Part shown: positions 157 through 34,210 of the stretch, in pieces | How positions within the stretch are numbered: position 1 is the stretch's first letter | Layout: the number at the start of each line of letters is the position of its first letter | Virus record (IMG/VR): IMGVR_UViG_3300034105_003474 | Location: 32,001 to 96,000 of that record | Length of the DNA: 64,000 nt | Reading direction: 5' to 3' (one strand) | Source: a virus | Notes under the pieces: model-generated | Databases searched by the model: none | The model's input: the letters and a program-made list of their open reading frames with translations, nothing else | What the model was told of the DNA's origin: nothing | Translations under genes and position numbers: made by a program

Positions 157-753
157 TTAGAACGCCTGTACCAAAACTTTGGTAATTTCGTCTAGTTCGC
201 CAACGACCTTCTCATACTGTGCGTCATAGTCGTCGTCGTCGCCACTCATGCTTGGGTACTCGCACTCAATGTTATTGAGAAGTACGCCTGCCTTGATCGC
301 TGATCCACCCATGAAACCCATCCCACCTTCTTCGTAGGTGAGAATGAAGTTCAATGTTGGGAACTCCCTAGACACATTGACTATGCCCTGAATGATCGGA
401 GACCACGCAGACATGAACACAACATCTAATAGACCTGCCTCGTAGGTGTTGATTACGCCTTCGTAGTCAGACCACTTAGAACCGTAGTTCGCACAATTCC
501 AATCGTACCAATCCTTATATCCGAACTTTGCGATATTCGCTTCGTTCTGTTGTTCCATTGTCTTTTGCTTGTCGCTTTCACCGAAAGAACCTTTAGGTGT
601 GTTCTGTAGTTCTTCGGGTGTTGGGAGAAGATTGTCAAGAATACGAAACTGTTCGTAATCTTTCATCTCACCTTTTGTGATTGCGTCATGAAAACGCATC
701 ACTTCTTTGTCGTCTCCTGTTACTTGGAGATAGTTGCTACATAGGTTTGGCAT
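157..753 (-). CDS. DUF1281/YubB (Api92-like) ferredoxin-like domain protein
   Basis: MPNxCxNxL start, WYDWNCANYGSKW, FMSAWSP and YEEGGMGFMG motifs; strong RBS. Confidence 0.75.
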   Translation of the reverse strand: MPNLCSNYLQVTGDDKEVMRFHDAITKGEMKDYEQFRILDNLLPTPEELQNTPKGSFGESDKQKTMEQQNEANIAKFGYKDWYDWNCANYGSKWSDYEGVINTYEAGLLDVVFMSAWSPIIQGIVNVSREFPTLNFILTYEEGGMGFMGGSAIKAGVLLNNIECEYPSMSGDDDDYDAQYEKVVGELDEITKVLVQAF

Positions 754-818: not shown

Positions 819-951
819 CGGTTATTTTTTAGTAGGTGTATTTGTTTTGTTATTCATAAATATATCGGATCAGAAACCATTTGTCAAGTCTTTCGTAAAA
901 CTTATCCGTATAAATCTAAACGATCTTGCTTTGAGGTTGGGTGAGCATCTG

Positions 952-1076
952 TATCCGCCACCGTTCAGGTTGGTAACAAACAAATGATGCTAAATAACAA
1001 CCGTTGCAAACTAGACAGCCCCGCATCTAACCCTGCACCCGCAACAGTCCCGCGATACACGCGAGAGCGCGGGACT
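952..1076 (+). repeat. Composite intergenic element copy 1 (22-bp box A + AGCCCCGC + AGTCCCGC-N15-GCGGGACT)
   Basis: TATCCGCCACCGTTCAGGTTGG 952-973; octamer at 1017; inverted pair 1046-1076. Confidence 0.8.
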
Positions 1077-1117
1077 ACTGTCTGCGAACACCCGTTTGGT
1101 CTACTAATGTCGGGACT

Positions 1118-1504
1118 ATGAGAACTTCACGAACAGACAGATGGCAATACCGTTTCAATGCGCTTCAGCAATACACGAACAGGGCAGGTAGTTCACTTGT
1201 TCCTGCGACCCACATTGAAGTTTATGAGGGGAAGAATGTTGCTGTTGGTGCTTGGGTTGCGTACAACCGTCAGCAGTACAGAATGGGTACATTGCCTGAC
1301 GCACGCAAGCAAGCGTTAGAGACTCTCGCAGGTTGGCATTGGGAGAAACAGAAACCTGGCAGACGCTATGACATTCGCCGTGACGCAGACATTCTTTCAC
1401 GCCACGCAGGTGGAGAGCGAGTAGGTTTGCTCGCAGAACAATTCAATCTCTCTCGTCAACGAGTTCATCAGATCATCAAGAAGAAGTCAATCCCAAATGT
1501 CTAA
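1118..1504 (+). CDS. Helicase-associated (HA) domain + C-terminal HTH DNA-binding protein
   Basis: W..RFNALQQY...VP...VGAWVAYNRQQYR.G.L...RKQALE..GWHW (HA domain); LAEQFNLSRQRVHQII (HTH). Confidence 0.75.
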   Translation: MRTSRTDRWQYRFNALQQYTNRAGSSLVPATHIEVYEGKNVAVGAWVAYNRQQYRMGTLPDARKQALETLAGWHWEKQKPGRRYDIRRDADILSRHAGGERVGLLAEQFNLSRQRVHQIIKKKSIPNV

Positions 1505-1853
1505 CTTTCGTAGCGGAGATAACAACGGTAGAGACGCTTGGAAGAAGATGAGCGAGTGGTCTCACAGTGTCCCTGACGACGAACTCAACGAACTATTCAT
1601 AGACCAAGATGAATGGGACGAGTGGGGAGACGCTGATCTATTGCCACCACTAACACGAGGAAAAAAGATGCAAAAGTTTATTGCAGGTTTATTCGGTCTC
1701 GCAATGATCGGAACAATTTTTTCTGTATCCACATACCAACTTGCAAAAGTGTTTGGTGTAGATAACTTCACTTTCCGAGACGCTGTTGTTGTGACTGTGT
1801 GCTTATCTTTGATTCGTTACACGGACGCAGGAGTGATGAAACAGATCCGATAA
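1497..1853 (+). CDS. Hypothetical membrane protein
   Basis: Acidic N-terminus and two hydrophobic segments; overlaps the stop of the upstream gene. Confidence 0.55.
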   Translation: MSNFRSGDNNGRDAWKKMSEWSHSVPDDELNELFIDQDEWDEWGDADLLPPLTRGKKMQKFIAGLFGLAMIGTIFSVSTYQLAKVFGVDNFTFRDAVVVTVCLSLIRYTDAGVMKQIR

Positions 1854-1985
1854 ACACAACAGGACGCACCCTTGCGAGTGCGCCCTGAGCGGAGAAACAG
1901 AAAGGTGAAAGGAGAAGTCCTTTCTATCTCTCTAGCGAACAGAATAACATATGAGTTATATGTCAATTCTGAAGCGGGTTGGGAG

Positions 1986-3482
1986 TTACCCCAACCGCTT
2001 TCCGTTTAGTTGTTGATAGGTCTGTTGCCACATTCTTGGATACCAACGCTGTGGTTTTTTACCAACCGATAGTTGCTTCAAGAGTGCAAGTCCGTCTTTC
2101 ACATTGTGTGCCATAAACACTTTGTGCTTCAAGACTTCTTTTATGCAGTCCATTGCAAGAATGTCGTGGTATCCACCGTACGCACCTGCTGTTCCAAGTC
2201 CGTGAACCTGACCGTCAGTAATCCACACGATCGGAGTTGACGAACGCTTACGCTGTTTGATTGCCCAACGAATTGCTTCGCCGTCAACACCGTTCCCACC
2301 ATTTCGTTCAGGAAGTTTGTCAACCATTTTTCCGTCTTTCGCAAGAACGAGAAGGTTTGGTTTGACATTGCTTCGGTCTGCCGAATACACCGCAACCGTG
2401 CAACCAGGACTTGCAACAGTGAGATCAAGAATGTCTTTATTGTTTAGAGACATTGAACCCGAACCGTCAATCAAGACGATACCGCCGTTGCCTTTCTTGT
2501 ATCGGTCAAACACTCGCTTCTCGGGGTCAACTAATGCGTTGCCGATTCTGCGTGGGTTACGACCAATGTTGCTTGCTGTGCGCTTGCGACCGAGACCGCC
2601 GTGTGCTTTGCGTGTAAGTGGAAGAGTACCAACAATAAGTTTTCCCCAAGTCGGTACTGCACCACTGCTTCTGCGTGAAGGTTCAGTCGGTTTTACTTTC
2701 TTTGGGTCTGCTTTCGGTTGCTGTGGTTTATCCGTTGCACCGTTGCCATTCTTGGTATCTTTCTTTGCGTTGCCTTCTTGCTTCGCTTCGTTCTCTTGCT
2801 TCGCTTCGCTTTCACCGTCTTCGTTTTCGTTTTCGTCAACAGGTGGATTTGCCAAACGGTCAATCCATTCTGCGATTCGCTCTGTGTGTGCGAACCCCAT
2901 TGGTGCGAGACCTGTGCGCTCATCTACTTCGGTTGAACCGAGAGTGCCTGTCTTGTGTGCCTTGACAAACTCCTTCTCCACTGCTTTCACAATGTCTCGG
3001 AGTGTTGTTCCCCATGCACGATTTACTCTGCGTACACCTGTGAGGAAGTCTTTGCCACCACCGCAAACCGAATAACCGACTGCTGTGTAAACCGCACTCG
3101 TCCAATCGCCTTGCTCTGCGACACGCATACCTGTAGTGAGTTCGCTTCCGTCTGCCAACAGATCAACATCAAATCCTGCTTTCTTGATAAGAAAGTTCAC
3201 ACGAACTTCCTCAACAACGATCAGTGCGTTCTCTGTTGCGATCTTGCGTTCAATCCACTTCGGGAAGTCGTCTGCGGGTGAGAACCGTGCGTGTGCCATT
3301 TCATGCGCACGAATTACACGATCAACTTGTTCGTCACCAACAGGAACAACCATGTGTTTTGTAACAACATTGGTCATTGGTTTGCCACGAACAGGTGCGC
3401 AAGTATCTACTTGCCATGCGCCCGAGTCTTTATCTTTGCGCCCCAACATTTCGGGGAGTGGTCTAATTTCTGTCTTTTGCAT
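1986..3482 (-). CDS. Metallopeptidase-like (HExxH) + vWA domain protein (CobT-like partner of MoxR ATPase)
   Basis: HEMAH motif; MIDAS DGSGSM; ITDG; lies directly downstream of an AAA ATPase. Confidence 0.8.
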   Translation of the reverse strand: MQKTEIRPLPEMLGRKDKDSGAWQVDTCAPVRGKPMTNVVTKHMVVPVGDEQVDRVIRAHEMAHARFSPADDFPKWIERKIATENALIVVEEVRVNFLIKKAGFDVDLLADGSELTTGMRVAEQGDWTSAVYTAVGYSVCGGGKDFLTGVRRVNRAWGTTLRDIVKAVEKEFVKAHKTGTLGSTEVDERTGLAPMGFAHTERIAEWIDRLANPPVDENENEDGESEAKQENEAKQEGNAKKDTKNGNGATDKPQQPKADPKKVKPTEPSRRSSGAVPTWGKLIVGTLPLTRKAHGGLGRKRTASNIGRNPRRIGNALVDPEKRVFDRYKKGNGGIVLIDGSGSMSLNNKDILDLTVASPGCTVAVYSADRSNVKPNLLVLAKDGKMVDKLPERNGGNGVDGEAIRWAIKQRKRSSTPIVWITDGQVHGLGTAGAYGGYHDILAMDCIKEVLKHKVFMAHNVKDGLALLKQLSVGKKPQRWYPRMWQQTYQQLNGKRLG

Positions 3483-3571
3483 ATTTCCAACTTTCGTTTC
3501 TAGGTTTATGTCTCTTGCTTAGGGAGACTTGCTTACACCCCCACCTTACGGCAGGGGTGTCGCAGGGTTAT

Positions 3572-4315
3572 TTAGACCGCAACCTTGTTGATTGCGATTG
3601 CGTCTAGGACGCTTTCCGCTTGCTTTCCGAACACCATTCGTGCCGAGTCTGCGTCACCAAGTGTCTTGCGTAGGTGGTCAAACGCATAGAAGGTGCGGAG
3701 TGAGATTCTGCGCTCACCTGCGTCTGCCATGCGAACCGCATACTCACGCAAGTCTGCGGACAATGCCAACAGTGCGTCAGGATGTGGTTGGTTGATACGG
3801 ATTGCTACAGGGAAACGATCTTTCAACGCTTCAGGTAGTTCTTCCATTGTCTCAATGTTGGTGGTCATAACAACACTGAACCCGTCTTTTGGTGTGATCG
3901 TCCGACCGTTGTCAGGTGATTCCCACTTTGCTGATTCAGGTGAGTCAGTGAATGCGAGGAGTGTTGCGAACACATCTGCGCCTGCTTTGTCAATCTCGTC
4001 AATTACGAGACGACCGCCACGCAAACCGTCACCCTTCCACGCTGATACTGCTTTGCCGTCTGTCCAAGACCAACCGCCTTCGCCGTTCATCTTGTAGTGA
4101 CCTTCTACTTGCGCATTGGACATGTCCTCTGTGCAGATCAAACGCCACGCACCTGCGGTAATGTCACCGTAGTTGAGACCTGCGAAAGTCTTACCTGTTC
4201 CTGGGGGACCGAATAAGATCAAACGGTCAATGCCTGCGTTGAGTGCGTTCTCAACATCTTTCCAACACTGTGGAAGATCGTTGCGCACCTTTCCTTCTAG
4301 AACTTGCTGTGTCAT
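3572..4315 (-). CDS. MoxR/CbbQ/CobS-like AAA+ ATPase
   Basis: Walker A GPPGTGKT, Walker B LVIDEID, TTN sensor, ALKDRF arginine finger. Confidence 0.85.
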   Translation of the reverse strand: MTQQVLEGKVRNDLPQCWKDVENALNAGIDRLILFGPPGTGKTFAGLNYGDITAGAWRLICTEDMSNAQVEGHYKMNGEGGWSWTDGKAVSAWKGDGLRGGRLVIDEIDKAGADVFATLLAFTDSPESAKWESPDNGRTITPKDGFSVVMTTNIETMEELPEALKDRFPVAIRINQPHPDALLALSADLREYAVRMADAGERRISLRTFYAFDHLRKTLGDADSARMVFGKQAESVLDAIAINKVAV

Positions 4316-4444
4316 TTTTCTTTCCTTCTCCGAACTCTGTTCGGTCTAATTGTTTATGTCTATTTGTATTACGCACACACTCGCTGAATGTGTGACTTCC
4401 TTGTACACCCACCACATTACATGGTGGGTGTAACACGGTTTGAG

Positions 4445-4852
4445 TTACGCCACCTGCGCTTCTGCGTTGGTGTTGCTCTCGGTCTTTGCGCCTTTGAGTT
4501 CCGTTACACGGATTTGCTCGTATGCGGTGATCGTGGTTACTGCTTGTGCGACATCTGCCTTGATTACACCAACTTCTACTGCGGACTTGAACTTCTTTCC
4601 GTCCACTGCTGATTTGGTGACAGTCTTGAACACCTTGTCGGAAACAAGATCTTTCAACATTTCAACGCTGTAGGAAGGACGCTCGCCCTTGACTACTGCC
4701 ACTTTGATTCCGTCAACCACTGCGTAGTCAACGCCTTCTTTTGCGAGTTCCAACTTGAAACTTGCTTCTGCCTGTGCGAGTTCTTGCTGTGCGATCTCTA
4801 GTGCTTCACGCTTCGCAAGTACTGCTTTTGCTGTTGAGGTTGTTAGTGCCAT
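4445..4852 (-). CDS. Hypothetical protein
   Basis: 135 aa ORF with GAAGGA RBS and class-1 promoter at 4905-4926. Confidence 0.65.
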   Translation of the reverse strand: MALTTSTAKAVLAKREALEIAQQELAQAEASFKLELAKEGVDYAVVDGIKVAVVKGERPSYSVEMLKDLVSDKVFKTVTKSAVDGKKFKSAVEVGVIKADVAQAVTTITAYEQIRVTELKGAKTESNTNAEAQVA

Positions 4853-4993
4853 TTCTATTTCCTTCTTTCGTTTAGTTGTTTAGGTTTATTTGCTTCTTGC
4901 CACCACTGTATATCAGGGGTGTAACACGGTTATTCGTACTGACTTTCTATCTATGATAGATAGTCTAGTACCTGTTTTTGGACTTGTCAAGTC

Positions 4994-5245
4994 TTATGCG
5001 AGAAACCTCGCAATCCCTGCGTCCGTAAGGTCGTCCCCGATCTGACGCTTTGCGTCTAGGTCGTTCAGGTACTCGCTGACGATCTCGCAGATGTCGTCAC
5101 ATTGGTTCTGAATCGCTTCGTGACGCTCACGCTCGTCTGCGTCCTCTAAAGGGTTCATCACGACCGCATACGACCTGAACGCCTGTGCGAACAACGCTTG
5201 CTCAATGCGTTCTAGTTGTGCTTCTGTGAATGTTGTGATCTTCAT
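4994..5245 (-). CDS. Hypothetical protein (start reassigned to MKITTF)
   Basis: AAGGAG RBS before ATG at 5245. Confidence 0.6.
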   Translation of the reverse strand: MKITTFTEAQLERIEQALFAQAFRSYAVVMNPLEDADERERHEAIQNQCDDICEIVSEYLNDLDAKRQIGDDLTDAGIARFLA

Positions 5246-5357
5246 TGCTTGCTCCTTGTTTGTTGGTGTACCTGTAATACGCACAGTGACACGGAATGTG
5301 TGACAATCTTTTTTGGACAGAGTCCAAAATAGGTTGTGGATAATTCGTTGAGGTTTA

Positions 5358-5483
5358 TATACGCCACCGTTCAAGTTGGTAGATGGTTGAAGGATCGCCG
5401 ATCCCCGTGCGCCTGCGCCCGAGAGCCCCGCGCTACAAGCATCTTCTCGGACAGCCCCGCGCCACATCTTTGGTGGCGGGACT
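5358..5483 (+). repeat. Composite intergenic element copy 2
   Basis: TATACGCCACCGTTCAAGTTGG 5358-5379; AGCCCCGC 5424; AGCCCCGC-N15-GCGGGACT 5453-5483. Confidence 0.8.
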
Positions 5484-5602
5484 ACGACGAACTTTTCATC
5501 AAACTTTATACACGCTTGCGCTTTGGTGAGGAGATGCACACTCAGTTTATTCGCTTAGGTTTATACGAGTACTTTGTAACACCCATTTATTATTCTGTAT
5601 TT

Positions 5603-5908
5603 ATGACTTACATATTTGAGGAGTGTGAGGCGCAAGTGCGACTTCACCATAACGGCGAGTGGGTGGGATATGTCTCATATGACATTGACCTCATGGAAAC
5701 CGATTACATCACTATTGGTTGGGTCAAATCATTCATTGAAGGCAAGGGATATGCACGGATACTTATGGAGTGGTTGTACAACCGATACCCCGAACACACG
5801 ATTGATTGGGGAGAATGTTTGCACCCTGCGTCATTGGCGTTAGCAGAGGACTTCTACTCTCGGTACTACGACCGTACGGCATATTTAGAACCTATGGAAA
5901 TATCTTAG
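5603..5908 (+). CDS. Small GNAT-like acetyltransferase, leaderless
   Basis: ITIGWVKS..EGKGYARILMEWL resembles GNAT motif A; ATG 6 nt after the -10 of a class-1 promoter (5575-5596). Confidence 0.55.
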   Translation: MTYIFEECEAQVRLHHNGEWVGYVSYDIDLMETDYITIGWVKSFIEGKGYARILMEWLYNRYPEHTIDWGECLHPASLALAEDFYSRYYDRTAYLEPMEIS

Positions 5909-5988
5909 AAACATCATCACACTTTATATGACTGTGTGCGTTATATGTGTGTAGGCAACAACGCCTACCAAACAGTTAGGAGACGCAG

Positions 5989-6132
5989 TTGGAAATCAAC
6001 TACGGAGCAATAAAAGAAATGACCCGTGCGTTGAAGCAAGAAATTGCACAAAATGGGATAAACGAAAACAATGCACAATGGGTTCACGAACTCAGAGTTG
6101 CGATTGAACTTCGTGAAAGCGGTGTCTACTAA
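5989..6132 (+). CDS. Small hypothetical protein (47 aa, TTG start; not in ORF track)
   Basis: AGGAG RBS, open frame to TAA at 6132, followed by a terminator. Confidence 0.45.
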   Translation: MEINYGAIKEMTRALKQEIAQNGINENNAQWVHELRVAIELRESGVY

Positions 6133-6142
6133 CACCGCCAAC

Positions 6143-6180
6143 AAGACCCCAACTCGGAAACGGGTTGGGGTTCTTTTTTG
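6143..6180 (+). terminator. Rho-independent terminator
   Basis: ACCCCAACTCG-GAAA-CGGGTTGGGGT stem followed by a T run. Confidence 0.7.
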
Positions 6181-6184
6181 CCAT

Positions 6185-6215
6185 AGCCCCGCGATCTGAT
6201 ACGCGACGCGGGACT
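6185..6215 (+). repeat. Inverted octamer pair AGCCCCGC-N15-GCGGGACT
   Basis: Direct reading; same 15-nt spacer as other copies. Confidence 0.75.
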
Positions 6216-6276
6216 GAAGCAAAAGAAAACCCGCAGAAGATGGTTGGTCTCCTGCGGGTTCTTGAAGTTTTGATTT

Positions 6277-6516
6277 TTAGTAGACCCCGAACGATATTCC
6301 GTCTGATGTCATTCCGAACAATGCGCCTGCGTCATTGCCCTCTGTGTCCTGCGAAGGGTAGAGGATTGTTCCGCTAGAGAGGACGAGAACCATAGGGATT
6401 TCCCGTTTCCGCCAACCTTCTTTGTTCATTTCTGCTTTTGTCATTGGACGGATGTCAATGATTGTTGATCCGATCATTGAGTCGTCTACGGTTTCTGCTT
6501 CGTATGTTTTACTCAT
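6277..6516 (-). CDS. Hypothetical phage protein (MSKTYE...)
   Basis: AAAGGA RBS; IIDIRPMT..E...EGW...YPSQDTEGNDAGALF pattern seen in phage proteins. Confidence 0.6.
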   Translation of the reverse strand: MSKTYEAETVDDSMIGSTIIDIRPMTKAEMNKEGWRKREIPMVLVLSSGTILYPSQDTEGNDAGALFGMTSDGISFGVY

Positions 6517-6718
6517 TGTGTGTCCTTTTTCTTTCGTTGTAGTGATGTAGTGGAGACATACCACGCTCCTCCACCACCGAGTATGTATATGTATGCCGAA
6601 CTAGAGTCTTCTTCTGCGTATCCCCAAAACTCGCAATCACTTTCATTGCGGTATTTGACGATTTCGCCGATCTGATATTGCTTCATCTATGTCCTTTCTG
6701 TGGTGAAGCGTCTCGCTG

Positions 6719-6970
6719 TTATGCGGACGCTATTACGGGTGATACGAGGTTTGCTAGTTCACGCTCTAACTCTGCACCTTCGCAGTTGTTCATGAGGTCA
6801 ATCAAATTATCTAACCATGTCGCAACTTTTGCAGGGAGTGGTGTTGTGTTGAGATAGTTGGTGTACTTGTTGAGTACGACATCTATTTCGTTTGCTAGTC
6901 CTGCTCCTTCAACATTGTTTGTGATGTCAAGGATTTCTATGACTAGGTTTAGGTAACTTTGCTTTGCCAT
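6719..6970 (-). CDS. Hypothetical protein (MAKQSY...)
   Basis: GAAAGG RBS; class-1 promoter at 7003-7024. Confidence 0.6.
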   Translation of the reverse strand: MAKQSYLNLVIEILDITNNVEGAGLANEIDVVLNKYTNYLNTTPLPAKVATWLDNLIDLMNNCEGAELERELANLVSPVIASA

Positions 6971-7164
6971 TTCTAGTGCCTTTCGTTTAGGTTTATACAA
7001 CTACTTTACTGAAGCGGTGTAGCAGGGTTATCCCTGCCACCTAAAGTTGCGACACGCCTTCTTGTCGTTCTTTTTCCGCTTGTCCGCTATGCGCTGTGCC
7101 TTCAGGATGTTCCTATCTGCGAACGCCTGACGCTCCTCGGGTGTCCATGATGTATCTATTTTCA

Positions 7165-7647
7165 TTATGCTCGTCTCCTGTTCTTTGTCCACTCGTGACA
7201 ACTATGTTTTGCTTGCTCATCTACTTGCTCTTGTGACATTCCTGCTGTAATCAACGGACGGTATCCGCATGAGTTACACGCAACGCCGAGGTACTCGGTG
7301 ACACCTTGTGCTATCTGATATGCGTGAACTGTTGTGTTGCCGTGCGTGCGCTCATTTAGATAAACCGTGATGAATACTTCGCAGTTTGCGCAACCGATGA
7401 TTTTGACATCTTTGCCGTCTGTCGGTGCTTGCTTTGTAAAGAAGTCAAACTTGAAGTGTTTGCAGGTTTCGCACTTGTCGTCAAGTTTGCGAACCTTTGC
7501 TACTTCTACTGCACCTTCGGTAACGACCTTCCAATGTGTTGGGAGGATGCCTTTCTTTTGTGCTTGCTCAATGAGGTGGTTGCGAACCGCCCATTGTGCA
7601 TAGGGCTTGGCGACTTTTGTTGCCTTTGCCTTTTTGACCTTTGCCAT
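7165..7647 (-). CDS. Zn-finger-like hypothetical protein
   Basis: Three CxxC pairs; AAGGAG RBS; class-1 promoter at 7691-7712. Confidence 0.6.
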   Translation of the reverse strand: MAKVKKAKATKVAKPYAQWAVRNHLIEQAQKKGILPTHWKVVTEGAVEVAKVRKLDDKCETCKHFKFDFFTKQAPTDGKDVKIIGCANCEVFITVYLNERTHGNTTVHAYQIAQGVTEYLGVACNSCGYRPLITAGMSQEQVDEQAKHSCHEWTKNRRRA

Positions 7648-7853
7648 TTCTAGTATCTCCTTGTTTAGGTTTATCTAACTCGCTACTTACACTATATACG
7701 CACGGTGTCATATAGTTGTGACATTTATAGACGCTAATAATAAATATACTTCTAATATATCAGGGGGCATAATATCCCCACCTTTATCCACAGCCTGTGG
7801 ATAACTAGATCGGGCAACACCATTTAGCACTAAGTCAAACAATCAGCAGGCTA

Positions 7854-7978
7854 TATACGCCACCGTTCAAGTTGGGTGATGTCTTGATGTCTTGATTGCG
7901 GGGATCGCCAAACCCCACAGCCCCGCGCCCGCGCATCGCGTCGCGGGACTCACAAGTCTCAGATTGTTCGTCGGGACT
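7854..7978 (+). repeat. Composite intergenic element copy 3
   Basis: Box A 7854-7875; AGCCCCGC-N16-GCGGGACT 7919-7950; extra TCGGGACT at 7971. Confidence 0.75.
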
Positions 7979-8266
7979 GTCGCCGTCGCATCCGCCGTTT
8001 GTTGGGATAGTGTTGGGATATGGCTCATCCCTTCAGTCGCAAACACTCCACTAACTTGCAGATCAGCAATGTCATTGACGCACTCGCGCAAACTGAGCCC
8101 GAACTATTTGGCGAGGGCAACGCCGTGCTAATGCCCGTCACACACTCCACAAGGCTCACGCTTGCAGACGATCTGCGTTCACACTATGAGCCACTCACCT
8201 ACCCTCATACGCACAAATAGCCCGCCTACCGAACGGCAGACGGGCTACTGAACGCCTAAGAGTGAT

Positions 8267-8515
8267 CTAGGACTGCACCCAACCCCTTGGGGTATTCATC
8301 GCGTAAAGGTGCGGTATGACGCTCACGATGAGATCAGTGAACGCTTGCGCCACCTCATCGCGCGAGGACGATATACCTTGAATGAAGTCATCGTCAATAC
8401 GCCCATGAATGAGATCATCCACGATCGCACCGATAACACCGATACCTATTGCACCTATGCCGAGATAATTCTCCGCAAGTAATTCACGCACTGATAATTC
8501 CATAATTTTCTCCAT
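8267..8515 (-). CDS. Hypothetical protein
   Basis: 82 aa ORF followed by a hairpin at about 8218-8248. Confidence 0.5.
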   Translation of the reverse strand: MEKIMELSVRELLAENYLGIGAIGIGVIGAIVDDLIHGRIDDDFIQGISSSRDEVAQAFTDLIVSVIPHLYAMNTPRGWVQS

Positions 8516-8605
8516 TGTCTAGTTGCTTGGTAATCGGCTTGCGCCTTGTGCCTAGTTGGAATTGAATCCCACGCCGAACGCGCTAGGCGACTCACCTAGT
8601 GAGTG

Positions 8606-9058
8606 TTATGCACCGTGTGTGCCGTCACCGCCCATCGCGATAAGTGTTGCACGATTCCACGCCTCACGCACCGCATCGTTCGCAATGAGTGCCGTGTTGG
8701 TGGTGAGTAGTTCAATGACTTGCGCCTCAAACTGATCTAACGCCTTCGCGCTGTATCGTGCGATCGGTTGCGATGCAACCATGCCGTGTGGGTAGTTCAC
8801 CGTGTCAAAGATCGTGAACTGCACCGACTCATAACCACGCGAACGATCGTAATGCGCGAACTGAATGAACGCTGTGAATCGCTTGCGATCTGCATCGTGC
8901 GAGATACCGAGTGACACCATCCCACCGACTAGTTCGCCTTCAAACTGAATTGACTGCGAAGGACTGTACCAACGGTAAGAGATCTCGCGATCCTTCACCT
9001 TGCGTATTGCTTGTGCGAAGTTCGCACCTTGAGTCATAACTGACATATCTAACTCCAT
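8606..9058 (-). CDS. Hypothetical protein (start MELDMS or the nearby MSVM)
   Basis: Class-1 promoter at 9092-9113 upstream. Confidence 0.6.
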   Translation of the reverse strand: MELDMSVMTQGANFAQAIRKVKDREISYRWYSPSQSIQFEGELVGGMVSLGISHDADRKRFTAFIQFAHYDRSRGYESVQFTIFDTVNYPHGMVASQPIARYSAKALDQFEAQVIELLTTNTALIANDAVREAWNRATLIAMGGDGTHGA

Positions 9059-9191
9059 TCCTAGTAGATAAGCGATATTGCTTATACACACACAATACGC
9101 AAGGGGTGTTGCATAGTGTGACATCGCCCGATCAGGCAGATCAGCCACACCGAGATCAGGATTCACGATCTGCGATCCGACTCACGATCTA

Positions 9192-9327
9192 TATCCGCTA
9201 CCGTTCAAGTTGGGGACTCAGATCCGCGATCCGCCCGTGCGACGCGCCCGCCCGCGCACGGCGACGGAGCCCCGCAAGTATTTGTTTACCCGCATCAGTC
9301 CCGCGTGCATCGTCGCACGGCGGGACT
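9192..9327 (+). repeat. Composite intergenic element copy 4
   Basis: TATCCGCTACCGTTCAAGTTGG 9192-9213; AGCCCCGC 9268; AGTCCCGC-N15-GCGGGACT 9297-9327. Confidence 0.8.
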
Positions 9328-9390
9328 CGCAAGTCGTTGGCGACAAACAGTTGCGTTTGAAACGGTTGCGACACTCGGACTTAGAAACAG

Positions 9391-9429
9391 CAAAAGCCCC
9401 CACCCGACAGAAAGGTGAGGGCTCGTGCC
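9391..9429 (-). terminator. Terminator hairpin, duplicated at about 9686-9721
   Basis: AAAAGCCCCCACCCGA...GGTGAGGG(G)CTCGTGCC occurs after both the 9440 and 9732 gene ends. Confidence 0.6.
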
Positions 9430-9439
9430 GAACCGAAGT

Positions 9440-9580
9440 TTACTTACTTGCCTCCAAGAGTGCTTGGAAGTTTGCGAACTCCTGCTCGCATGACAAACAA
9501 TGCCACACGGTGGTTGGGTTGGAGTCCGATGCAACTGCGCTATCTGTGTGCTTGTGTCCTTCAATGCACGGATCGTACAT
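9440..9580 (-). CDS. Small Cys/His protein (MYDPCIEGH...)
   Basis: GAAAGG RBS; C..H...CxxC pattern. Confidence 0.45.
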   Translation of the reverse strand: MYDPCIEGHKHTDSAVASDSNPTTVWHCLSCEQEFANFQALLEASK

Positions 9581-9731
9581 ATGCCTAGCCTTTCGTTTAG
9601 AGGGGCTGTATCGCCCCTGTGTACTCATTACGCACGCACCATCGCTGATTGTGCCTGAGACGCACCACAAGCCCCCCTAGGAACGCAAAAAGCCCCCACC
9701 CGAAGGGTGAGGGCTCGTGCCTGTGAAGGAA

Positions 9732-10154
9732 CTATGCGGAGAGTGCTGACACCTTCGCGCGAACATTCGCAATGTTCGTGAAGTGCTTCACGCCTTCCGC
9801 GGTGGTGAAACCAACCTTGACCACGCCGTAACCGTCCTCCTCGGGTGCGACCCAAAAGACCACGCCGACCGTGCCTTTAGGAACTTTGCGTCCCTTGAAC
9901 ACCTCAACGGTTTGACCCTTGACGACTTCGCCGTCCGCGACCAACTGTGCGAGACGCTCCGCATTGCGACGGACGATCTCCGCCCACCTTGCGACTGCCT
10001 CCTCCGTGTGACGGTGGGGTTGCTTCCAACGACCAACGCCACCCTCGTACTCGCGACCTGCACGCTCCGCGAGATAACGCACACCATTGCGGTTTACATC
10101 AAAGAAAACCTCTTCTCCGCACCCGCCACACCCGAACCTTTTACCGTTTTCCAT
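9732..10154 (-). CDS. Hypothetical protein with SH3/KOW-like C-terminus
   Basis: VKGQTVEVFKGRKVPKGTVGVVFW motif; GGAGG RBS; class-1 promoter at 10188-10209. Confidence 0.65.
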   Translation of the reverse strand: MENGKRFGCGGCGEEVFFDVNRNGVRYLAERAGREYEGGVGRWKQPHRHTEEAVARWAEIVRRNAERLAQLVADGEVVKGQTVEVFKGRKVPKGTVGVVFWVAPEEDGYGVVKVGFTTAEGVKHFTNIANVRAKVSALSA

Positions 10155-10335
10155 AACTCCTCCTTCAGAGGTCTAGTAGTTGTAATCAGAATACGCACAG
10201 GGTGTGACAGAGTGTGACTTGGATAAACCTAAACGAAGGGACGGCGAAGCCGCTTTCTGACAGCGAAGCAGCGTTGCGGGCGAAGCCGCTCGGCATCGCT
10301 GGCTTTCCTGCTCCGCAGCGATGCATCTCATACAC

Positions 10336-10366
10336 AGCCCCGCAAACCGCGTGGCTACGCGGGACT
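10336..10366 (+). repeat. Inverted octamer pair AGCCCCGC-N15-GCGGGACT (a further N25 pair at 10649-10689)
   Basis: Direct reading. Confidence 0.75.
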
Positions 10367-10688
10367 ATGGGCGCATCAGAAGAAGAAAGAAGACAAACCC
10401 GGTTGGGAACGTTGGGACAGGACCCGACGCACATTTTTGTAAAAAAGACAACTTTTTACGCGTTTTAGAAAACACCAATTTTTCACTAATTTTATGGTTT
10501 TTGAAAGCCTTATTCCATAAGGGTTTTACGGAACAGGTTTTCAGGAAACTTCTGAGCCAACACAAAAAACATCAAAAAGAACAACTTTTGAAAGATCCGG
10601 CTGCCAGGTCCCACAATTCCGGGCAGGTCCTGCTTCAGGCTTCTCGGAAGCCCCGCTTAGTTACTTGTGCTGAAGCACAGCGCGGGAC

Positions 10689-10889
10689 TCAGAAGAGGGT
10701 TGGCGCATCATCAAATTGGTTGCGTACCTCAGTACAGATTTTGTGGGCATACCCGAGTGGGGCGGAAGGTTTTTTTGGTGTCCCCAAGTATTTTCCATCT
10801 CGGTATTCAACCCATGAAACGATCTTCACACAGTAGGCGTGGTTCGTTGTGTCTATTTCTTGTTCACAGATGGAGCAGTTGACTTTCAT
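10689..10889 (-). CDS. Small Zn-binding hypothetical protein
   Basis: CSIC...HKIC; abuts the upstream gene. Confidence 0.5.
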   Translation of the reverse strand: MKVNCSICEQEIDTTNHAYCVKIVSWVEYRDGKYLGTPKKPSAPLGYAHKICTEVRNQFDDAPTLF

Positions 10890-11114
10890 TTATGCGGTTG
10901 CTTCTGCCTTTAGTGGTGCAACGATCACGGAGAGTAGATCTTCTACAGGGAACTGTAGATCACTATGCGACCTGATGTCAAGGAGTAGATCAACCATTTC
11001 TGATGATGACACGAGTTCGCGACCCGAGATATGTTTGATCGCATTGTCTATGAGGTCGGTGATAGTGCTAATTTGTTGTGCTGTTTCCAAGAGACTTCTT
11101 CTTTCTAGGTGCAA
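10890..11114 (-). CDS. Hypothetical protein
   Basis: Part of a tightly packed minus-strand operon. Confidence 0.5.
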   Translation of the reverse strand: MHLERRSLLETAQQISTITDLIDNAIKHISGRELVSSSEMVDLLLDIRSHSDLQFPVEDLLSVIVAPLKAEATA

Positions 11115-11268
11115 TAGTTGGTAGATAGTTTATCGCATAATCGTAGGTATGACGCAGACAAACGATGTGGTCGTTGTACACCGAGAGTGCTGTAGAGCAC
11201 CCTTCTAGTGCACAACGACGAACGCCGTTGCCATCTGTTTTGGGTTTGAGGACGGTGTTACTCTCCAA
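11068..11268 (-). CDS. Small Cys-rich hypothetical protein
   Basis: RRCALEGCSTALSVYN...CLRH, a motif seen in actinobacterial small proteins. Confidence 0.5.
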   Translation of the reverse strand: MESNTVLKPKTDGNGVRRCALEGCSTALSVYNDHIVCLRHTYDYAINYLPTIAPRKKKSLGNSTTN

Positions 11269-11707
11269 GTTTCGCCCACTCTTCGTCGCCGATGAGTTCT
11301 GATGCTTGCAGTATTGCTTCCTCTATATCAAAGTGCACGCAGTTCAACCAACCCGCTTCGCCAACTGTGTCGTCGTCTGCGTACAGATCAAACCATGCGT
11401 TGTTGTCAAACTCAATGCGTTCTTCGTCTATTGCTTTCTGCAACTGCTCATCTGTTTCAATGCCTGCTTCTGCGAGACGGTCGGAGTATCTGATCACCTG
11501 ATAGTTCGCATTGTCAATGCGTGCTTCTTTGCTGTCCCAAACATGGAGACGCATTTCGCCATCGCAGTAAACGCTGATGGTGCGGTCTTTGAAGGTAACC
11601 CGTGCCACGAGTTGGTGTGCATTTGCGTCCCAAACATAGAACGCAGGGTCTTTGCAGAACTCTCGCTCATGCGGTGACTGTTCTCGGGTGATAATTAGGT
11701 CTTGCAT
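11258..11707 (-). CDS. Hypothetical protein
   Basis: AAGGAG RBS; class-1 promoter at 11738-11759. Confidence 0.65.
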   Translation of the reverse strand: MQDLIITREQSPHEREFCKDPAFYVWDANAHQLVARVTFKDRTISVYCDGEMRLHVWDSKEARIDNANYQVIRYSDRLAEAGIETDEQLQKAIDEERIEFDNNAWFDLYADDDTVGEAGWLNCVHFDIEEAILQASELIGDEEWAKLGE

Positions 11708-11762
11708 TACTTCTCCTTGTTTCTAGTAGTTGTACCAAGAGTAATACGAGGGTGTTGTGCGG

Positions 11763-11990
11763 TTATGCGTTTCCTAACAGCGCCAATGCTTCGTCTATTT
11801 CTATGGTTGTTTTGATGGAGTGGTCGCCGTCGTATGCAACCGTGACATAGTTTGCGCCAACGGACGGGTTCTCTGCGAGATCGCAAATAGACCCGTACGC
11901 CTGTGCTACCGCATCTAGATGGTTATCTGCCTCGTAGACCATTTGCCAAGTGACTAGGTATTGCATCAGACGGACAGACTTTCCTGCCAC
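11763..11990 (-). CDS. Hypothetical protein
   Basis: Operon context. Confidence 0.5.
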   Translation of the reverse strand: MAGKSVRLMQYLVTWQMVYEADNHLDAVAQAYGSICDLAENPSVGANYVTVAYDGDHSIKTTIEIDEALALLGNA

Positions 11991-12178
11991 GAGAACATTG
12001 GGGTAACACCGAACTCGTCTTTTACGGAACGGGTGCTGACTTCAACATCAACCTTGTATTGCTCCAACGATGCGAGGATATCTGCAAGTTCCGCCTTGTC
12101 GGTTGCGATACGGTAACGCAACTCGTGCATACGGGTATTTAGGGTCTCAAATGTTTGCTTTTTGTTACGGAGTTTCAT
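11966..12178 (-). CDS. Hypothetical coiled-coil protein
   Basis: TAATG coupling with the upstream gene. Confidence 0.5.
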   Translation of the reverse strand: MKLRNKKQTFETLNTRMHELRYRIATDKAELADILASLEQYKVDVEVSTRSVKDEFGVTPMFSWQESLSV

Positions 12179-12564
12179 TATTTATCTGCCTTTCGGTCTG
12201 CTTGTGGGTCTCTTATCTCATACTGACGACTTTCGCGTTTTACGAAGATGTCAGGACGATCTTGAACGATCTTGCGGACGGTTGCTTCTGATATGTCACC
12301 GATTTCTGCAAGTTCTTTTACAGTTATCAACTCAAAGACATGGTTCTTGCACCAAGACAAAATGTCTTGCTTGCCGTCTTGTGCTGTACGCCAACCTTCA
12401 CTTGGTTGTGCCTGTGCCAAGAGTTCTGCCTTGATGTTGTTTGGTACGAGATCACGGACACGCTTAGGTACTTGCGCAACCCAAACAGGTTTCCCATAGG
12501 TGTTGATCGCTTCAGTAACTTCGCGTATCGCGTCGTCTAGTTGTGTGTCTACTTCGTTACTCAT
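12178..12564 (-). CDS. Putative winged-HTH DNA-binding protein (leaderless, MSNEVD...)
   Basis: ITVKELAEIGDISEATVRKIV HTH; ATG 7 nt after the -10 of a class-1 promoter (12572-12593). Confidence 0.6.
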   Translation of the reverse strand: MSNEVDTQLDDAIREVTEAINTYGKPVWVAQVPKRVRDLVPNNIKAELLAQAQPSEGWRTAQDGKQDILSWCKNHVFELITVKELAEIGDISEATVRKIVQDRPDIFVKRESRQYEIRDPQADRKADK

Positions 12565-12608
12565 AGTGTCTACTATACGCAACGGGTGTGACAAAGTGTG
12601 TGACCCCA

Positions 12609-12866
12609 TTAGAACGGTTCTGCTGTTCGCATGGACTCAGGTACTACAAGTGCGCTTTGTGCTTCGTTCAGTACCGTCATTGTCTGAGAAATGATGTTGC
12701 TGGTTTTTAGTACTGCGCCCTTGAACACCGCTGACTGTTCTTGTGTGCCAACTCGTGATAGTTCTTGTTCAAGAACTTCGTAAATGCTGTGTATCGCTTT
12801 CTCAATGCGACTCAAACTTGCTGAGTCTGCATCAAAGATTTGTGCGAGTGTTTGTGTTCTTTCCAT
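12609..12866 (-). CDS. Hypothetical protein
   Basis: 85 aa ORF with GAAAGG RBS. Confidence 0.5.
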   Translation of the reverse strand: MERTQTLAQIFDADSASLSRIEKAIHSIYEVLEQELSRVGTQEQSAVFKGAVLKTSNIISQTMTVLNEAQSALVVPESMRTAEPF

Positions 12867-12978
12867 AATTTGCTTATCACCCTTTCAGGCTTCTAGGTTT
12901 ATCTAACAATACCATTATATATACACCTCAGTCAAATAGCAACCCCCCAAACAAACAAATGTTCGCCTCAAACTTTTA

Positions 12979-13117
12979 TATCCGCCACCGTTCGGTTTGG
13001 TGTATCCCATGTGTATGCCTGCTTGTTGGGTGGGGCTGTCCCACTTCTGAGCCCCGCTCGGATTTCCCCCCTTTCCTTCACGCGGGGCTGAGAAATACTT
13101 GCAAATGTTTGGGGACT
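12979..13117 (+). repeat. Composite intergenic element copy 5 (divergent)
   Basis: TATCCGCCACCGTTCGGTTTGG 12979-13000; AGCCCCGC 13050; GCGGGGCT 13082; TGGGGACT 13110. Confidence 0.7.
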
Positions 13118-13154
13118 CAGATAAACTAAAAGAAAGTACTAGAAAAGAGGCTAA

Positions 13155-32501: not shown

Positions 32502-33149
32502 ATGGCTGAAAAGGGTTTAACTAGAGAGTTTCTTGCTGAACGCGATTTGCGTATTTTCAAGATGAGGCAGGCTGGTATCCCTATAGCCGAAATTGCTAGA
32601 CGGTTTGGGATTGGTTCTACGAATGTCTCTCATTCAATCCGTAGGCAGTTGGGTAAGTTGAATCAAGAGGCGTTACTTGCGTACCCTGAAGTTTTACAAA
32701 TGGAACTTGAGCGTTTGGACGCTTTGCAGTCCGCAATCTGGCCGATGACACAACACAGAAAACAAAAAATGGATGACGGCACAGAGGTTGCGATTGAGCC
32801 CGATATTAAGGCGGTTTCAACGGTTCTTTCCATTATTGATAGGCGTGCGAAGTTGCTTGGTATGGAGCAGACGAACGTGAATGTGCAGATGGATTTGAGG
32901 GATGCTTCGCCTTTGCGTGCGGTTCTTGCTGGCGCTCCCGGTGTTCTTGGCGCAGAGAAATTTGATTCCGAGGCAGAGGGTAAGAAACTTCTTGCACTTA
33001 TGGCTGATGCTGGTATTCTTCCGAAGGAGCAGATCAGGGAACTGTTGAATGACTTCCCCGCCCTTGAAGATGGAGACGATATTCAGGATGCAGAAGTTAT
33101 TGAAGAGGATATAAAAGAAGTTATTGAAGAGGATATAAAAGAAGAATAG
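32502..33149 (+). CDS. HTH protein, possibly terminase small subunit
   Basis: R.AG....EIARRFG; ELERLDALQ..W; IDRRAKLLG; acidic tail with duplicated EVIEEDIK. Confidence 0.65.
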   Translation: MAEKGLTREFLAERDLRIFKMRQAGIPIAEIARRFGIGSTNVSHSIRRQLGKLNQEALLAYPEVLQMELERLDALQSAIWPMTQHRKQKMDDGTEVAIEPDIKAVSTVLSIIDRRAKLLGMEQTNVNVQMDLRDASPLRAVLAGAPGVLGAEKFDSEAEGKKLLALMADAGILPKEQIRELLNDFPALEDGDDIQDAEVIEEDIKEVIEEDIKEE

Positions 33150-33577
33150 TTTCTTTTATTCGTACATCTCTCGTTGTGGCAAACGCAGTTCGTTCTTCAT
33201 TTTCATGAATTTTAGTGCCCAAATTACTGTTATTGCTGGTGCAAGAAGCAAGCAAGCGACTATGGTGGCGAGGTCTTTTTTGTGGTTTTTCATAGGCAAT
33301 ATTGTATATCTCCTAAAGAGATGAGTCTTATCTAATCTAACAATGTGATGAAAACTTGCAGTTGATCTCTTTTAGAGATGGCATAATATCTGCCATGATA
33401 ATCTTTCTTTCAATTTCAGTGGCAGTAATTGCTTCCCTGCATACATACCTTATGCGTTCCATTGACTCCTATGACAGGTATGGCGCTCAGCACACACTTC
33501 AGGAATGGCGCGACTTTGAGAGGTCGCATTCAGTATTCCAATAGTCAGTTTTCGTTTTTATTTACCTTGGTGAGACA

Positions 33578-34210
33578 TCACATGTCATCCCTGTAGAAAA
33601 TTTCAAAACCGCAATGCATTATCGCAGATGCAAGAGTCCCAAAATAAACATCTCGTTCAATACTGTTATCTATTGGCTGTGAGTCAATTTTGAGTGATGC
33701 CTTAAGTGCGGCAGGGAACTGAATATCACGCATTACTCTTCCACCGTTGTACCAAAGCGTTTGCCCAAATTCAACTTTTCTGCCTAGTTTTACCTTGTAT
33801 GGGAGTGTCACGAAAATATGGTCGTCTGCTTTTAGGTGGGTGAAAGAGATGCATTCTTCAACGGATGACTCGTTGTCTGCATATAGCGTCGCTAAGTCTT
33901 TTCCTTCAGTATCCGATGGGGACATTGAGCAGTAGCCCTCGGCTGCGAGCGTGTATTCGTCAATACCCCATCCCTGCCTCATGATGACCGATGCTTCTAT
34001 GATTTGTTGAAGGCGTTCGTCTTTAGGTATACCAAATGTGTTTTTGAGTTGGACTATTGTGACTAATTCATTATTCTTCCAACCAAAAATATTAATATTT
34101 AAATCGGAGCCTATTCCGTCTTCGTCTATCAAAGCCAATTTTGCGGTTTTAACTGACTCAGCGCAGAGCGCTATTTTGTCCAAATCGGTTTCGTAAAATC
34201 CTGTGTACAT
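33578..34210 (-). CDS. Hypothetical protein
   Basis: 210 aa ORF. Confidence 0.6.
   Translation of the reverse strand: MYTGFYETDLDKIALCAESVKTAKLALIDEDGIGSDLNINIFGWKNNELVTIVQLKNTFGIPKDERLQQIIEASVIMRQGWGIDEYTLAAEGYCSMSPSDTEGKDLATLYADNESSVEECISFTHLKADDHIFVTLPYKVKLGRKVEFGQTLWYNGGRVMRDIQFPAALKASLKIDSQPIDNSIERDVYFGTLASAIMHCGFEIFYRDDM

Follow-up and report, generated by a model that had tools for sequence, protein, structure and literature searches.

Gene and motif organization of the region

The stretch of DNA analysed here (the window, 64,000 nucleotides) belongs to the 145-kb genome of an uncultured actinobacterial phage; window position 1 corresponds to genome position 32,001, and coordinates refer to the window unless marked "genome". 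The host is taken to be an actinobacterium because the genome carries two WhiB genes, and the phage is probably lytic, since no integrase or resolvase (i.e. no tyrosine or serine recombinase) was detected in the genome. A 22-nucleotide box had been described in an earlier note at positions 952, 5358, 7854, 9192 and 12979, always on the plus strand as the pattern was written. All five are exact matches, and the pattern was found 0 times in 100 shuffled sequences. The "gene-poor gaps" in which the boxes were said to lie are indeed non-coding. However, codon score and third-position substitution periodicity (against three relatives) place the surrounding genes on the minus strand, so these gaps are the intergenic spaces of a minus-strand array and the box had been read in the antisense direction. 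The features of the region are as follows (octamer arrays are given without strand; F and R denote individual octamers):

859-887, minus strand: sigma-70-like promoter TTGACA-17-TATATT, located between gene 157-753 and box copy 1, with which it stands in tandem
950-973, minus strand: box copy 1, read on this strand as CCAACCTGAACGGTGGCGGATACA, approximately 200 nt upstream of gene 157-753 (minus)
1017-1117: octamer array of module 1, with F1 at 1017-1024, an inverted repeat at 1046-1076 (N15) and R2, a degenerate fourth octamer TCGGGACT at 1110-1117, which abuts the ATG of the HA-HTH gene
1118-1504, plus strand: HA-HTH gene, encoding an HA domain and a Mor/sigma-region-4-like helix-turn-helix; candidate regulator
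1860-1887, minus strand: canonical U-tract terminator, ending the unit headed by box copy 2
5356-5379, minus strand: box copy 2, upstream of genes 4994-5245, 4445-4852, 3572-4315 (AAA_5 ATPase) and 1986-3482 (all minus)
5424-5483: octamer array of module 2, with F1 at 5424-5431 and an inverted repeat at 5453-5483 (N15)
6185-6215: box-less octamer inverted repeat, between convergent canonical terminators
6226-6262, minus strand: canonical U-tract terminator after gene 6277-6564, preceding the octamer repeat in gene direction
7852-7875, minus strand: box copy 3, upstream of gene 7165-7647 (minus)
7919-7978: octamer array of module 3, with an inverted repeat at 7919-7950 (N16) and R2, again the degenerate fourth octamer TCGGGACT, at 7971-7978
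8020-8220, plus strand: conserved gene of 66 aa after module 3, with a -10-like TAGTGT at 8008-8013 and octamer R2 at -49
9190-9213, minus strand: box copy 4 (variant CGCTACC), upstream of gene 8606-9058/9166 (minus)
9268-9327: octamer array of module 4, with F1 at 9268-9275 and an inverted repeat at 9297-9327 (N15)
9394-9424 and 9690-9716, minus strand: two near-identical canonical terminators after gene 9732-10154, preceding octamer array 4 in gene direction
10336-10366: box-less octamer inverted repeat
10649-10689: box-less octamer inverted repeat (N25), overlapping the stop codon of gene 10689-10889 (minus)
12914-12942, minus strand: sigma-70-like promoter TTGCTA-17-TATAAT, lying downstream of box copy 5 and ahead of gene 12609-12866
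12977-13000, minus strand: box copy 5, 110 nt upstream of gene 12609-12866 (minus), at the divergent junction of the leftward and rightward gene arrays
13050-13089: octamer inverted repeat of module 5 (N24), between divergent promoters
13099-13127, plus strand: sigma-A-like promoter TTGCAA-17-TAAACT of the rightward operon, predicted from sequence, 10 nt past the octamer repeat

Five further, slightly diverged boxes lie to the left of the window (genome 28188, 28476, 28914, 29468 and 30064), which brings the total to 10 boxes in 17 kb, on one strand throughout. These five have no nearby octamer repeats, except for the box at genome 28476, which opens an octamer-rich non-coding stretch. Related phage contigs carry 10-13 co-oriented boxes apiece. 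On the minus strand the box reads cCCAAnyTGA-ACGGTGGCG-kATAyA; the core ACGGTGGCG and kAwA are invariant across lineages, distant ones included, and the upstream half is lineage-specific. Box copy 3 is perfectly conserved in four genomes, in which its flanks have diverged.

The octamer AGYCCCGC was observed 31 times in the window (1.8 expected) and is confined to genome positions 28.5-57 kb, with 42 occurrences in that interval and none across the remaining ~116 kb. The first octamer starts 44, 45, 44, 55 and 50 nt past the end of the five boxes, and in copies 1, 2 and 4 a second one follows 29 nt later, forming AGYCCCGC-N15-GCGGGACT, exactly as described before. Related phages share both the motif and its internal spacing. 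The composite element is real, conserved and non-coding, but it is not one obligatory unit, as box and octamers are each found without the other. The proposal that offsets of 44/45 and 55 nt reflect one helical turn did not hold either: among 39 non-redundant modules the distance ranges continuously from 33 to 127 nt (Rayleigh p 0.3-0.7).

Octamer arrays and their candidate regulator

The octamers form 8-bp inverted repeats with spacers of 15+/-1 bp, sometimes 24-25 bp (14-16 bp in 65 repeats and 22-27 bp in 23), and direct repeats 28-29 bp apart, and the sequence between them is variable. This internal geometry fits protein half-sites. The sites occupy largely untranscribed DNA, either between the box and the terminator upstream of it or in the space separating divergent promoters, and in four genomes one order recurs: a gene and its U-tract terminator, then an octamer repeat, a spacer, the box and further genes. 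We read the octamers as a set of operators to which an oligomeric phage regulator would bind. In phage phi29, p4 binds several sites between the A2c/A2b and A3 promoters, with inverted half-sites approximately 15 bp apart, and forms a multimeric nucleoprotein switch between divergent promoters; the likeness to the octamers lies in the ~15-bp half-site spacing and the divergent-promoter setting, and the sequences are unrelated.

The best candidate for such a regulator is the HA-HTH protein, already named as a possible binder in the earlier note, whose own promoter lies inside an octamer array in every lineage. The arrangement F-100, F-72, R-49, R-8 is found upstream of its gene in all lineages, even box-less ones. 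A -10-like TAATGT (1105-1110) fits a leaderless start, and the promoter is probably leaderless. The recognition helix SRQRVHQI is invariant in HA-HTH proteins, and their homologues either bear the name of Mor-family regulators or contain Sigma70_r4, although similarity to Mor/C is weak (E 6e-4; PHROG 532 and JGI names) and structural matches have E > 0.2. The middle and late promoters of phage Mu that depend on Mor/C resemble the present system in that a normal -35 is missing and a dyad-symmetric site lies upstream, and here a conserved gene with a (weakly) Mor/C-like HTH is adjacent; Mor sites, however, centre at approximately -43, and the octamer repeats are further upstream of the box. As a target for this protein, the palindrome GCGAAC-N4-GTTCGC, which lies in the upstream region of the HA-HTH gene as well, would be just as good.

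The octamers may instead act as RNA hairpins of the leftward transcripts, as back-up terminators or stabilisers of 3' ends past the U-tract terminators, with the box as the next promoter and no octamer-binding protein at all, an explanation which we consider possible, though rather unlikely. It would correspond to PeSL/PmSL, the composite terminator-promoter motifs of T4-like phages (Arbiol 2010, PMC2839356; Comeau 2014, PMC4122927), whose architecture is the same: in both cases a repeated intergenic inverted repeat with a conserved stem sequence is combined with a promoter, is situated at unit boundaries in a plastic early ORFan region, and coincides with places where genes have been inserted, deleted or replaced from one relative to another. 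On the sense strand the octamer repeats fold at -17 to -24 kcal/mol (z-scores -2.7 to -5.3), and are more stable there by 0.7-13 kcal/mol than on the opposite strand, so that the earlier statement goes too far in setting an RNA stem aside. The repeats also follow gene ends, one of them overlapping a stop codon. At octamer position 3 the C/T combinations are asymmetric (35 versus 8, or 30 versus 5 by a stricter definition), the sense-strand U-G combination being the more numerous and the opposite ones lying mostly within a rightward-transcribed gene; this fits G-U pairing on the sense strand, but strand-biased mutation at a degenerate position gives the same pattern.

Several features argue against the hairpin explanation. 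The stem is fixed at 8 bp, with no pairing beyond it when gaps are disallowed, the spacers are fixed, and position 3 shows no covariation. Intrinsic terminators were rejected as an identity of the octamer repeats, since their loops are 14-16 or 24-25 nt long, no T-run follows, and canonical terminators occupy separate, adjacent sites. As the repeats lie downstream of these true U-tract terminators, which are just upstream (once between convergent ones), little RNA should reach them. Single octamers are enriched too, and at modules 1, 3 and 5 the arrays are upstream of promoters. In PeSL/PmSL the promoter is sigma-70-like early or MotA-type middle and the stem-loop is a terminator, neither of which applies here: the box is not sigma-A-like, U-tract terminators are separate, and octamer repeats with fixed spacers also occur singly and around promoters. 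The covariance models of Rfam 15 gave no match at E <= 1 in window positions 1-26000.

The box as a candidate promoter

The box precedes ten successive minus-strand units, usually just past the U-tract terminator of the previous unit, and its direction agrees with that of the flanking gene in 70 of 70 instances (13 genomes or contigs). In the same set, start codons lie 4-257 nt downstream and cluster at 20-37 nt; in relatives the box may be as near as ~20 nt to the next start codon, with a short leader before the start, and in the distant relative G005 it occupies 46-nt gaps in which a stop codon comes before it and a start codon after it. From this position, the box is most likely a phage-specific, non-sigma-A promoter, which host RNA polymerase would use with the help of a phage-encoded specificity factor. 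The assignment is made from position, as neither a -10/-35 in the box nor a phage polymerase, sigma factor or other specificity factor in the genome could be recognised. Searches of the 145-kb genome with PF00940 and the T7 gene 1 protein gave no match, neither search having a positive control, and a very divergent enzyme may have escaped them. Promoters of the T7/T3/SP6 class share with the box a length of 20-25 bp, high conservation, orientation, an AT-rich TATA-like end and repetition ahead of successive units, but the T7-like polymerase that would be expected with them was not detected in these same searches.

A consensus scan found sigma-A/sigma-70 -35/-10 geometry in none of the boxes. 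Membership of this class was defined by hexamers 16-18 bp apart and a -10 whose second base is A and whose sixth is T; the sole TATA-like hexamer, kATAyA, ends in A in either orientation, and a TTGAAC-like hexamer is just 7 bp from it, so the box was rejected as a sigma-70/sigma-A promoter. At copies 1 and 5 a sigma-70-like promoter stands in tandem with the box, an arrangement also known for T4 middle promoters. Between boxes 2-4 and the first genes of their units no sigma-70-like promoter was found at a 9-of-12 threshold, in a scan that covered the boxes in the window.

Two observations count against a promoter. At one site a conserved small gene begins 2-7 nt past the box and could not be expressed from a transcript starting downstream of it. 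In G005 the box is also found within a conserved gene of 494 aa. The box is possibly an oriented operator, and an operator or "stoperator" accounts for its position and orientation equally well. A bound phage regulator would then block or gate elongation between units, as the gp71 repressor of phage L5 does at the stoperators of Cluster A mycobacteriophages (PMC9283540), which are 13 bp long, present at 20-30 sites genome-wide in a temperate phage, and recognised by a two-domain immunity repressor of the gp71 type. The two share defining features: both belong to actinobacteriophages (the present host being indicated by the WhiB genes) and are asymmetric, multi-copy, placed in short intergenic spaces and promoter regions, and strictly oriented with transcription. 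At some boxes a 5' UTR would have no space, which also suits a stoperator. We nevertheless hold this explanation to be improbable. The box is ~25 bp long and occurs at 10 sites in a single 17-kb region of a phage that lacks a detectable integrase and is probably lytic, a roadblock after a terminator would be redundant, and the units behind boxes 2-4 would be left without a promoter candidate.

Gene cassette differences at the modules

Gene content varies at the modules, as the earlier note had supposed it might: variable genes adjoin them, and gene cassettes differ between relatives exactly there. Homology with the relative G001 stops at 5484, the end of the module 2 array, and a second break-point lies at 10333. 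Compared with G001, the window contains a 1.08-kb insertion flanked by direct AGCCCCGC repeats, with the module 4 array at its left end and the repeat 10336-10366 at its right end; the latter is the orthologue of a G001 repeat that directly follows a box.

Such junctions would also suit octamers that fold as single-stranded DNA hairpins on the lagging-strand template and serve in priming or replication, or as recombination sites of the integron type. Their strand asymmetry flips where gene and GC-skew polarity flip, and next to boxes 2-4 are perfect DnaA boxes as well as the genome's densest cluster of GATC. We regard this as very unlikely, because the repeats span 28 kb and lie within promoters too, the searches for tyrosine and serine recombinases were negative, and homologous recombination between repeats suffices for cassette exchange. 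An integron attC cassette array was rejected, as the tyrosine recombinase PF00589 is absent from the genome in a search whose control was positive in 14 of 14 genomes. The priming role proposed earlier found no direct support, and nothing spoke for packaging signals.

It is hardly credible that the box is a plus-strand promoter for short RNAs with a variable 5' part and an octamer hairpin end, which the hairpin 33-76 nt past the box and the rightward genes after modules 1, 3 and 5 might suggest, as 5 of 10 boxes (and most in G005 and L222) face the antisense of coding genes, the plus-strand form of the hairpins contains a C-A mismatch, the rightward genes are served by separate -10 elements that lie past the octamers, and no Rfam family matched.

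The explanation we favour, to which we give an even chance, is that two separable cis-elements, a promoter box and operator octamers, stand at the unit junctions of a leftward early array, junctions which are also sites of recombination. What the sequences show directly is where the elements lie and how they are oriented, conserved and internally spaced, how they are placed relative to terminators, and where cassettes break; promoter activity, the protein that would bind and the direction in which it would regulate are what we infer here. Because the modules are repeated, they may also act as recombination junctions for the gain and loss of gene cassettes in these phages.

Orientation and conservation of the box

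Codon scoring placed nearly all genes of genome 27–45 kb on the minus strand (genome denotes coordinates of the whole 144,873-bp record, of which the window is bases 32001–96000, other positions being those of the window), and this is supported by the periodicity of third-position substitutions in comparisons with three syntenic relatives of 70–90% identity. The exceptions are listed below.

Exceptions to the minus-strand gene array of the studied phage (G000)
Genome 33118–33853: stretch excepted from the minus-strand coding
5534/5603–5908, plus strand: GNAT-like ORF specific to G000, inside a 430-bp replacement directly after module 2 (box copy 2 with its octamers)
Genome 40020–40220 (window 8020–8220), rightward: conserved 66-aa gene
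Also excepted: 47-aa gene
Genome 45155 onward: everything

The GNAT-like ORF matched Pfam Acetyltransf_1 exactly at the cut-off, and the large phage proteins are structural or replication proteins. Two WhiB-like genes are in keeping with an actinobacterial host; no integrase, resolvase or lysogeny genes were found in the phage genome, and searches by DNA, or by a 498-aa protein in the phage collection, found no cultured relative.

The 22-nt box was located exactly where the earlier note had placed it (952, 5358, 7854, 9192 and 12979, all on the plus strand; box copies 1–5), and shuffled sequences gave no matches. A relaxed whole-genome search added five boxes to the left of the window (genome 28188, 28476, 28914, 29468 and 30064), making ten copies within 17 kb on a single strand. 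The remaining 128 kb contains just three further occurrences of the 9-mer core CGCCACCGT, none with the flanks. Each box copy precedes the start of a minus-strand gene; since the genes run on that strand, the sense in which the box had been read must be reversed, giving cCCAAnyTGAACGGTGGCGkATAyA.

A scan of viral contigs recovered the box in related phages, in dozens of contigs, with 10–13 co-oriented copies in the same ~18-kb region of each of four syntenic relatives, and with variants in the distant relative G005 and in lineages reached via the octamer repeat. Among 70 instances from 13 sources, the core ACGGTGGCG followed by [G/T]A[A/T]A never varies, the upstream half is particular to each lineage, and all 70 are co-directional with the flanking genes. 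At orthologous sites the flanks have diverged and the box is perfectly conserved. Box-to-start distances cluster at 20–37 nt, and for some boxes of G005 and its kin a 46-nt gap is filled by a stop codon, the box, 18–34 nt and a start codon.

Other motifs occur in the same region. A second motif, (g/a)ATAAACCTAAAC, lies 3–25 nt before the start codons of many genes, most of them on the minus strand, and is fused directly to the box in copy 2; it may mark transcript starts or be a leader element.

Copies of (g/a)ATAAACCTAAAC, among others
3498–3509, minus strand
4878–4889, minus strand
6985–6996, minus strand
7663–7674, minus strand
12891–12902, minus strand

Beside this motif, GTGTGACA/TGTCACA words, a further possible operator, are found upstream of several starts (10195–10222, 7690–7720 and, in relatives, L067:12060–12130). 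The window has just three perfect DnaA boxes (TTATCCACA), at 5335–5343(-), 7784–7792(+) and 7796–7804(-), which are 10–70 nt from box copies 2 and 3, where such clusters are conserved in related phages, and the cumulative GC skew reaches its minimum near them, at about 10–13 kb. The densest GATC cluster of the genome (8 in about 100 bp, the average being 3.2/kb) flanks box copy 4 at 9130–9231, palindromes of the GGATCGnCGATCC type are repeated in the module 2 and module 4 spacers as well as in those of the orthologous modules, and the phage encodes an N6/N4 DNA methylase (34627–36003).

Octamer repeats and the HA-HTH gene

The octamer AGYCCCGC occurs 31 times in the window, with 1.8 expected. 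It is confined to genome 28.5–57 kb, of which it is the most frequent 8-mer (42 copies, none elsewhere), and the related genome G001 has the same regional confinement. The offsets noted earlier (44, 45, 44, 55 and 50 nt from box to octamer, a second octamer at +29 and an N15 inverted repeat) were all reproduced. The element is, however, two separable elements and not the single composite originally described, as box and octamers each occur alone: boxes at genome 28188, 28914, 29468 and 30064 have no octamers, and octamer repeats at 6185, 10336 and 10649 have no box, as is also true of the array before the HA-HTH gene in G005. The repeat at 6185–6215 is flanked on both sides by convergent terminators. 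Inverted repeats have spacers of 14–16 bp in 65 cases and 22–27 bp in 23, and direct repeats are spaced at 28–29 bp (forward-forward) or 27–28 bp (reverse-reverse) with variable intervening sequence. Single octamers are enriched too, some being conserved within the SNF2 helicase gene; this gene (15383–17087) holds five, several at matching positions in G001.

A non-coding stretch of ~400 bp at genome 28476–28914 (L063:8476–8914), with a box at its beginning, contains three forward and four reverse octamers and is conserved in G001. Its reverse octamers lie 34, 37 and 46 bp apart, each beside its own small hairpin, and its fold z-score is near -4 for both strands. It could serve as a hub of control or resemble an origin.

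For the octamers, the proposal that the modules assemble a protein-DNA complex is plausible; the helical phasing of box to octamer on which it was argued fails, the distance ranging over 33–127 nt with no periodicity (Rayleigh p 0.3–0.7). The separability of the two elements, the stereotyped geometry of the repeats, the aperiodic distance to the box, ungapped pairing that stops at the 8 bp, the lack of Watson-Crick covariation at position 3 and the enriched single copies favour octamers acting as protein half-sites on duplex DNA. They could as well be hairpins: the repeats fold stably on the sense strand (-17 to -24 kcal/mol, 0.7–13 kcal/mol better than the other strand), and at position 3 C is preferred in the proximal half-site and T in the distal (35 vs 8, or 30 vs 5 by a stricter definition), which yields U-G pairs on that strand. 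The same C/T asymmetry would result from strand-biased mutation at a degenerate position. The repeats are not primary terminators, because U-tract terminators precede them in gene direction.

A candidate regulator is encoded at 1118–1504(+). Its product combines an HA domain with a C-terminal HTH and weakly matches the Mor and 'late transcriptional activator' families; homologues come from metagenomes only, some named Mor-family regulators and some carrying Sigma70_r4. The recognition helix SRQRVHQI is invariant in 11 lineages (34–78% identity). The AlphaFold model is confident (pLDDT 84), its structural matches being weak and at the HTH level only. In nearly every lineage the gene is preceded by an array of forward octamers at -100 and -72 and reverse ones at -49 and -8 from the ATG, with variants at -127/-100/-77/-29 and, in one lineage, the last reverse copy at -20. 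In G000 the last octamer directly adjoins the ATG and shares bases with a -10-like TAATGT, which suggests that the promoter is leaderless and autoregulated. An octamer at -49 and a -10 of the leaderless type are likewise present before the conserved rightward gene at 8020–8220.

Most lineages conserve a palindrome, GCGAAC-N4-GTTCGC, shortly before the HA-HTH gene, though it is degenerate in G000 and lineage L218; it is kept in lineage L213, which has no octamers upstream of this gene, and is thus an alternative candidate target of the HA-HTH protein. Sites were seen at 1084–1099, 12951–12966 and L069:9800–9816, one of them separating box 5 from the leftward promoter. The palindrome was rejected as a dispersed operator, not being enriched genome-wide.

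Candidate roles of the box

Along the gene direction, the same order recurs in four genomes: gene, U-tract terminator, octamer repeat(s), spacer, box, next genes; canonical U-tract terminators are present on both strands. The observed element is real and well conserved, consisting of putative promoter or operator boxes and repeat modules at unit junctions, a variant of known phage control architecture.

The best reading of the box is a phage-specific promoter, because of its post-terminator position, strict orientation, short distance to starts and the lack of another promoter candidate. In a scan of the copies within the window, sigma-70-like promoters were found between box and gene, in tandem with the box, at copies 1 and 5 (TTGACA-17-TATATT and TTGCTA-17-TATAAT); at the same threshold, none separates boxes 2–4 from the genes that open their units. 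The main rival is an oriented operator, like the 'stoperators' of phage L5 (PMC9283540). It is favoured by a conserved 49–55-aa CxxC protein (MxTCKYCGW..., genome 29292–29459, L063:9292–9459, minus strand), whose gene starts 2–7 nt past a box that, in G001 and the related G002, contains the stop codon of the upstream gene, and by a G005 box inside a conserved gene.

Other readings fared worse. No geometry or spacing fitted sigma-A, ECF-sigma, sigma-28, sigma-54 or extended -10 promoters on manual reading, and searches of the genome with PF00940, T7 RNAP protein and Sigma70_r2 gave no match to a T7-like polymerase or sigma domain. A plus-strand small RNA, T-loop or tRNA-like structure was rejected, with no covariation at variable positions, C-A mismatches in the plus-strand hairpins and no Rfam match. 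The box was also rejected as coding sequence: one frame reads ..ERWRI*, yet boxes come after stop codons, and long ORFs spanning modules are not conserved. As for a host regulon, 185,579 genomes were scanned with AACGGTGGCGNATANA, and among the matches listed there were only scattered singles in unrelated taxa, as by chance; in the literature, the motif strings were found in primers only.

More tentatively, the box with core ACGGTGGCG+kAwA and a lineage-specific half could be a previously undescribed promoter class, though we consider this rather unlikely. It would run early/middle genes in widespread 100–145 kb freshwater actinobacterial phages via the host's RNA polymerase, redirected by a phage factor that has escaped recognition (perhaps HA-HTH with its two modules, or capsid-injected proteins), and, coupled to regional AGYCCCGC operator arrays, would be a new transcription programme without a sigma factor or polymerase homologue.

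Gene cassettes at the modules

The gene content at modules varies between relatives: G000 and G001 cease to be homologous exactly where the module-2 repeat ends (5484), past which G000 has the GNAT-like plus-strand gene and the relatives have different minus-strand genes with their own terminators. Compared with G001, the G000 segment 9256–10332 (octamer, repeat, two terminators and a 140-aa gene) is an insertion that separates a box-spacer from its repeat and has direct AGCCCCGC copies on either side; in its place G001 has a unique gene and an extra box. Such exchange matches the modular shuffling of PeSL, the composite stem-loop and promoter motifs of T4-like phages (PMC4122927). No dedicated recombinase is required for it, and searches of the phage genome found none. 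On the minus strand, 270 nt separate two near-identical U-tract terminators (GAGCCCTCACC...GGGTGGGGGCTT; 9394–9424 and 9690–9716). No confident gene lies in this interval, which could represent a small RNA or what is left of a cassette.

To our knowledge, almost nothing is known about the timing of gene expression in phages of the abundant uncultured freshwater Actinobacteria. Our results provide a testable map for one phage family, comprising ten oriented boxes, an octamer network, a candidate regulator, terminators and ordinary promoters. If the box is a promoter, it represents a new recognition sequence with no polymerase or sigma factor found behind it; if it proves to be an ordinary operator, with the octamers serving as back-up hairpins, the architecture is routine phage regulation. 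The modules mark swap points of early genes, which helps in the reading of mosaic genomes.
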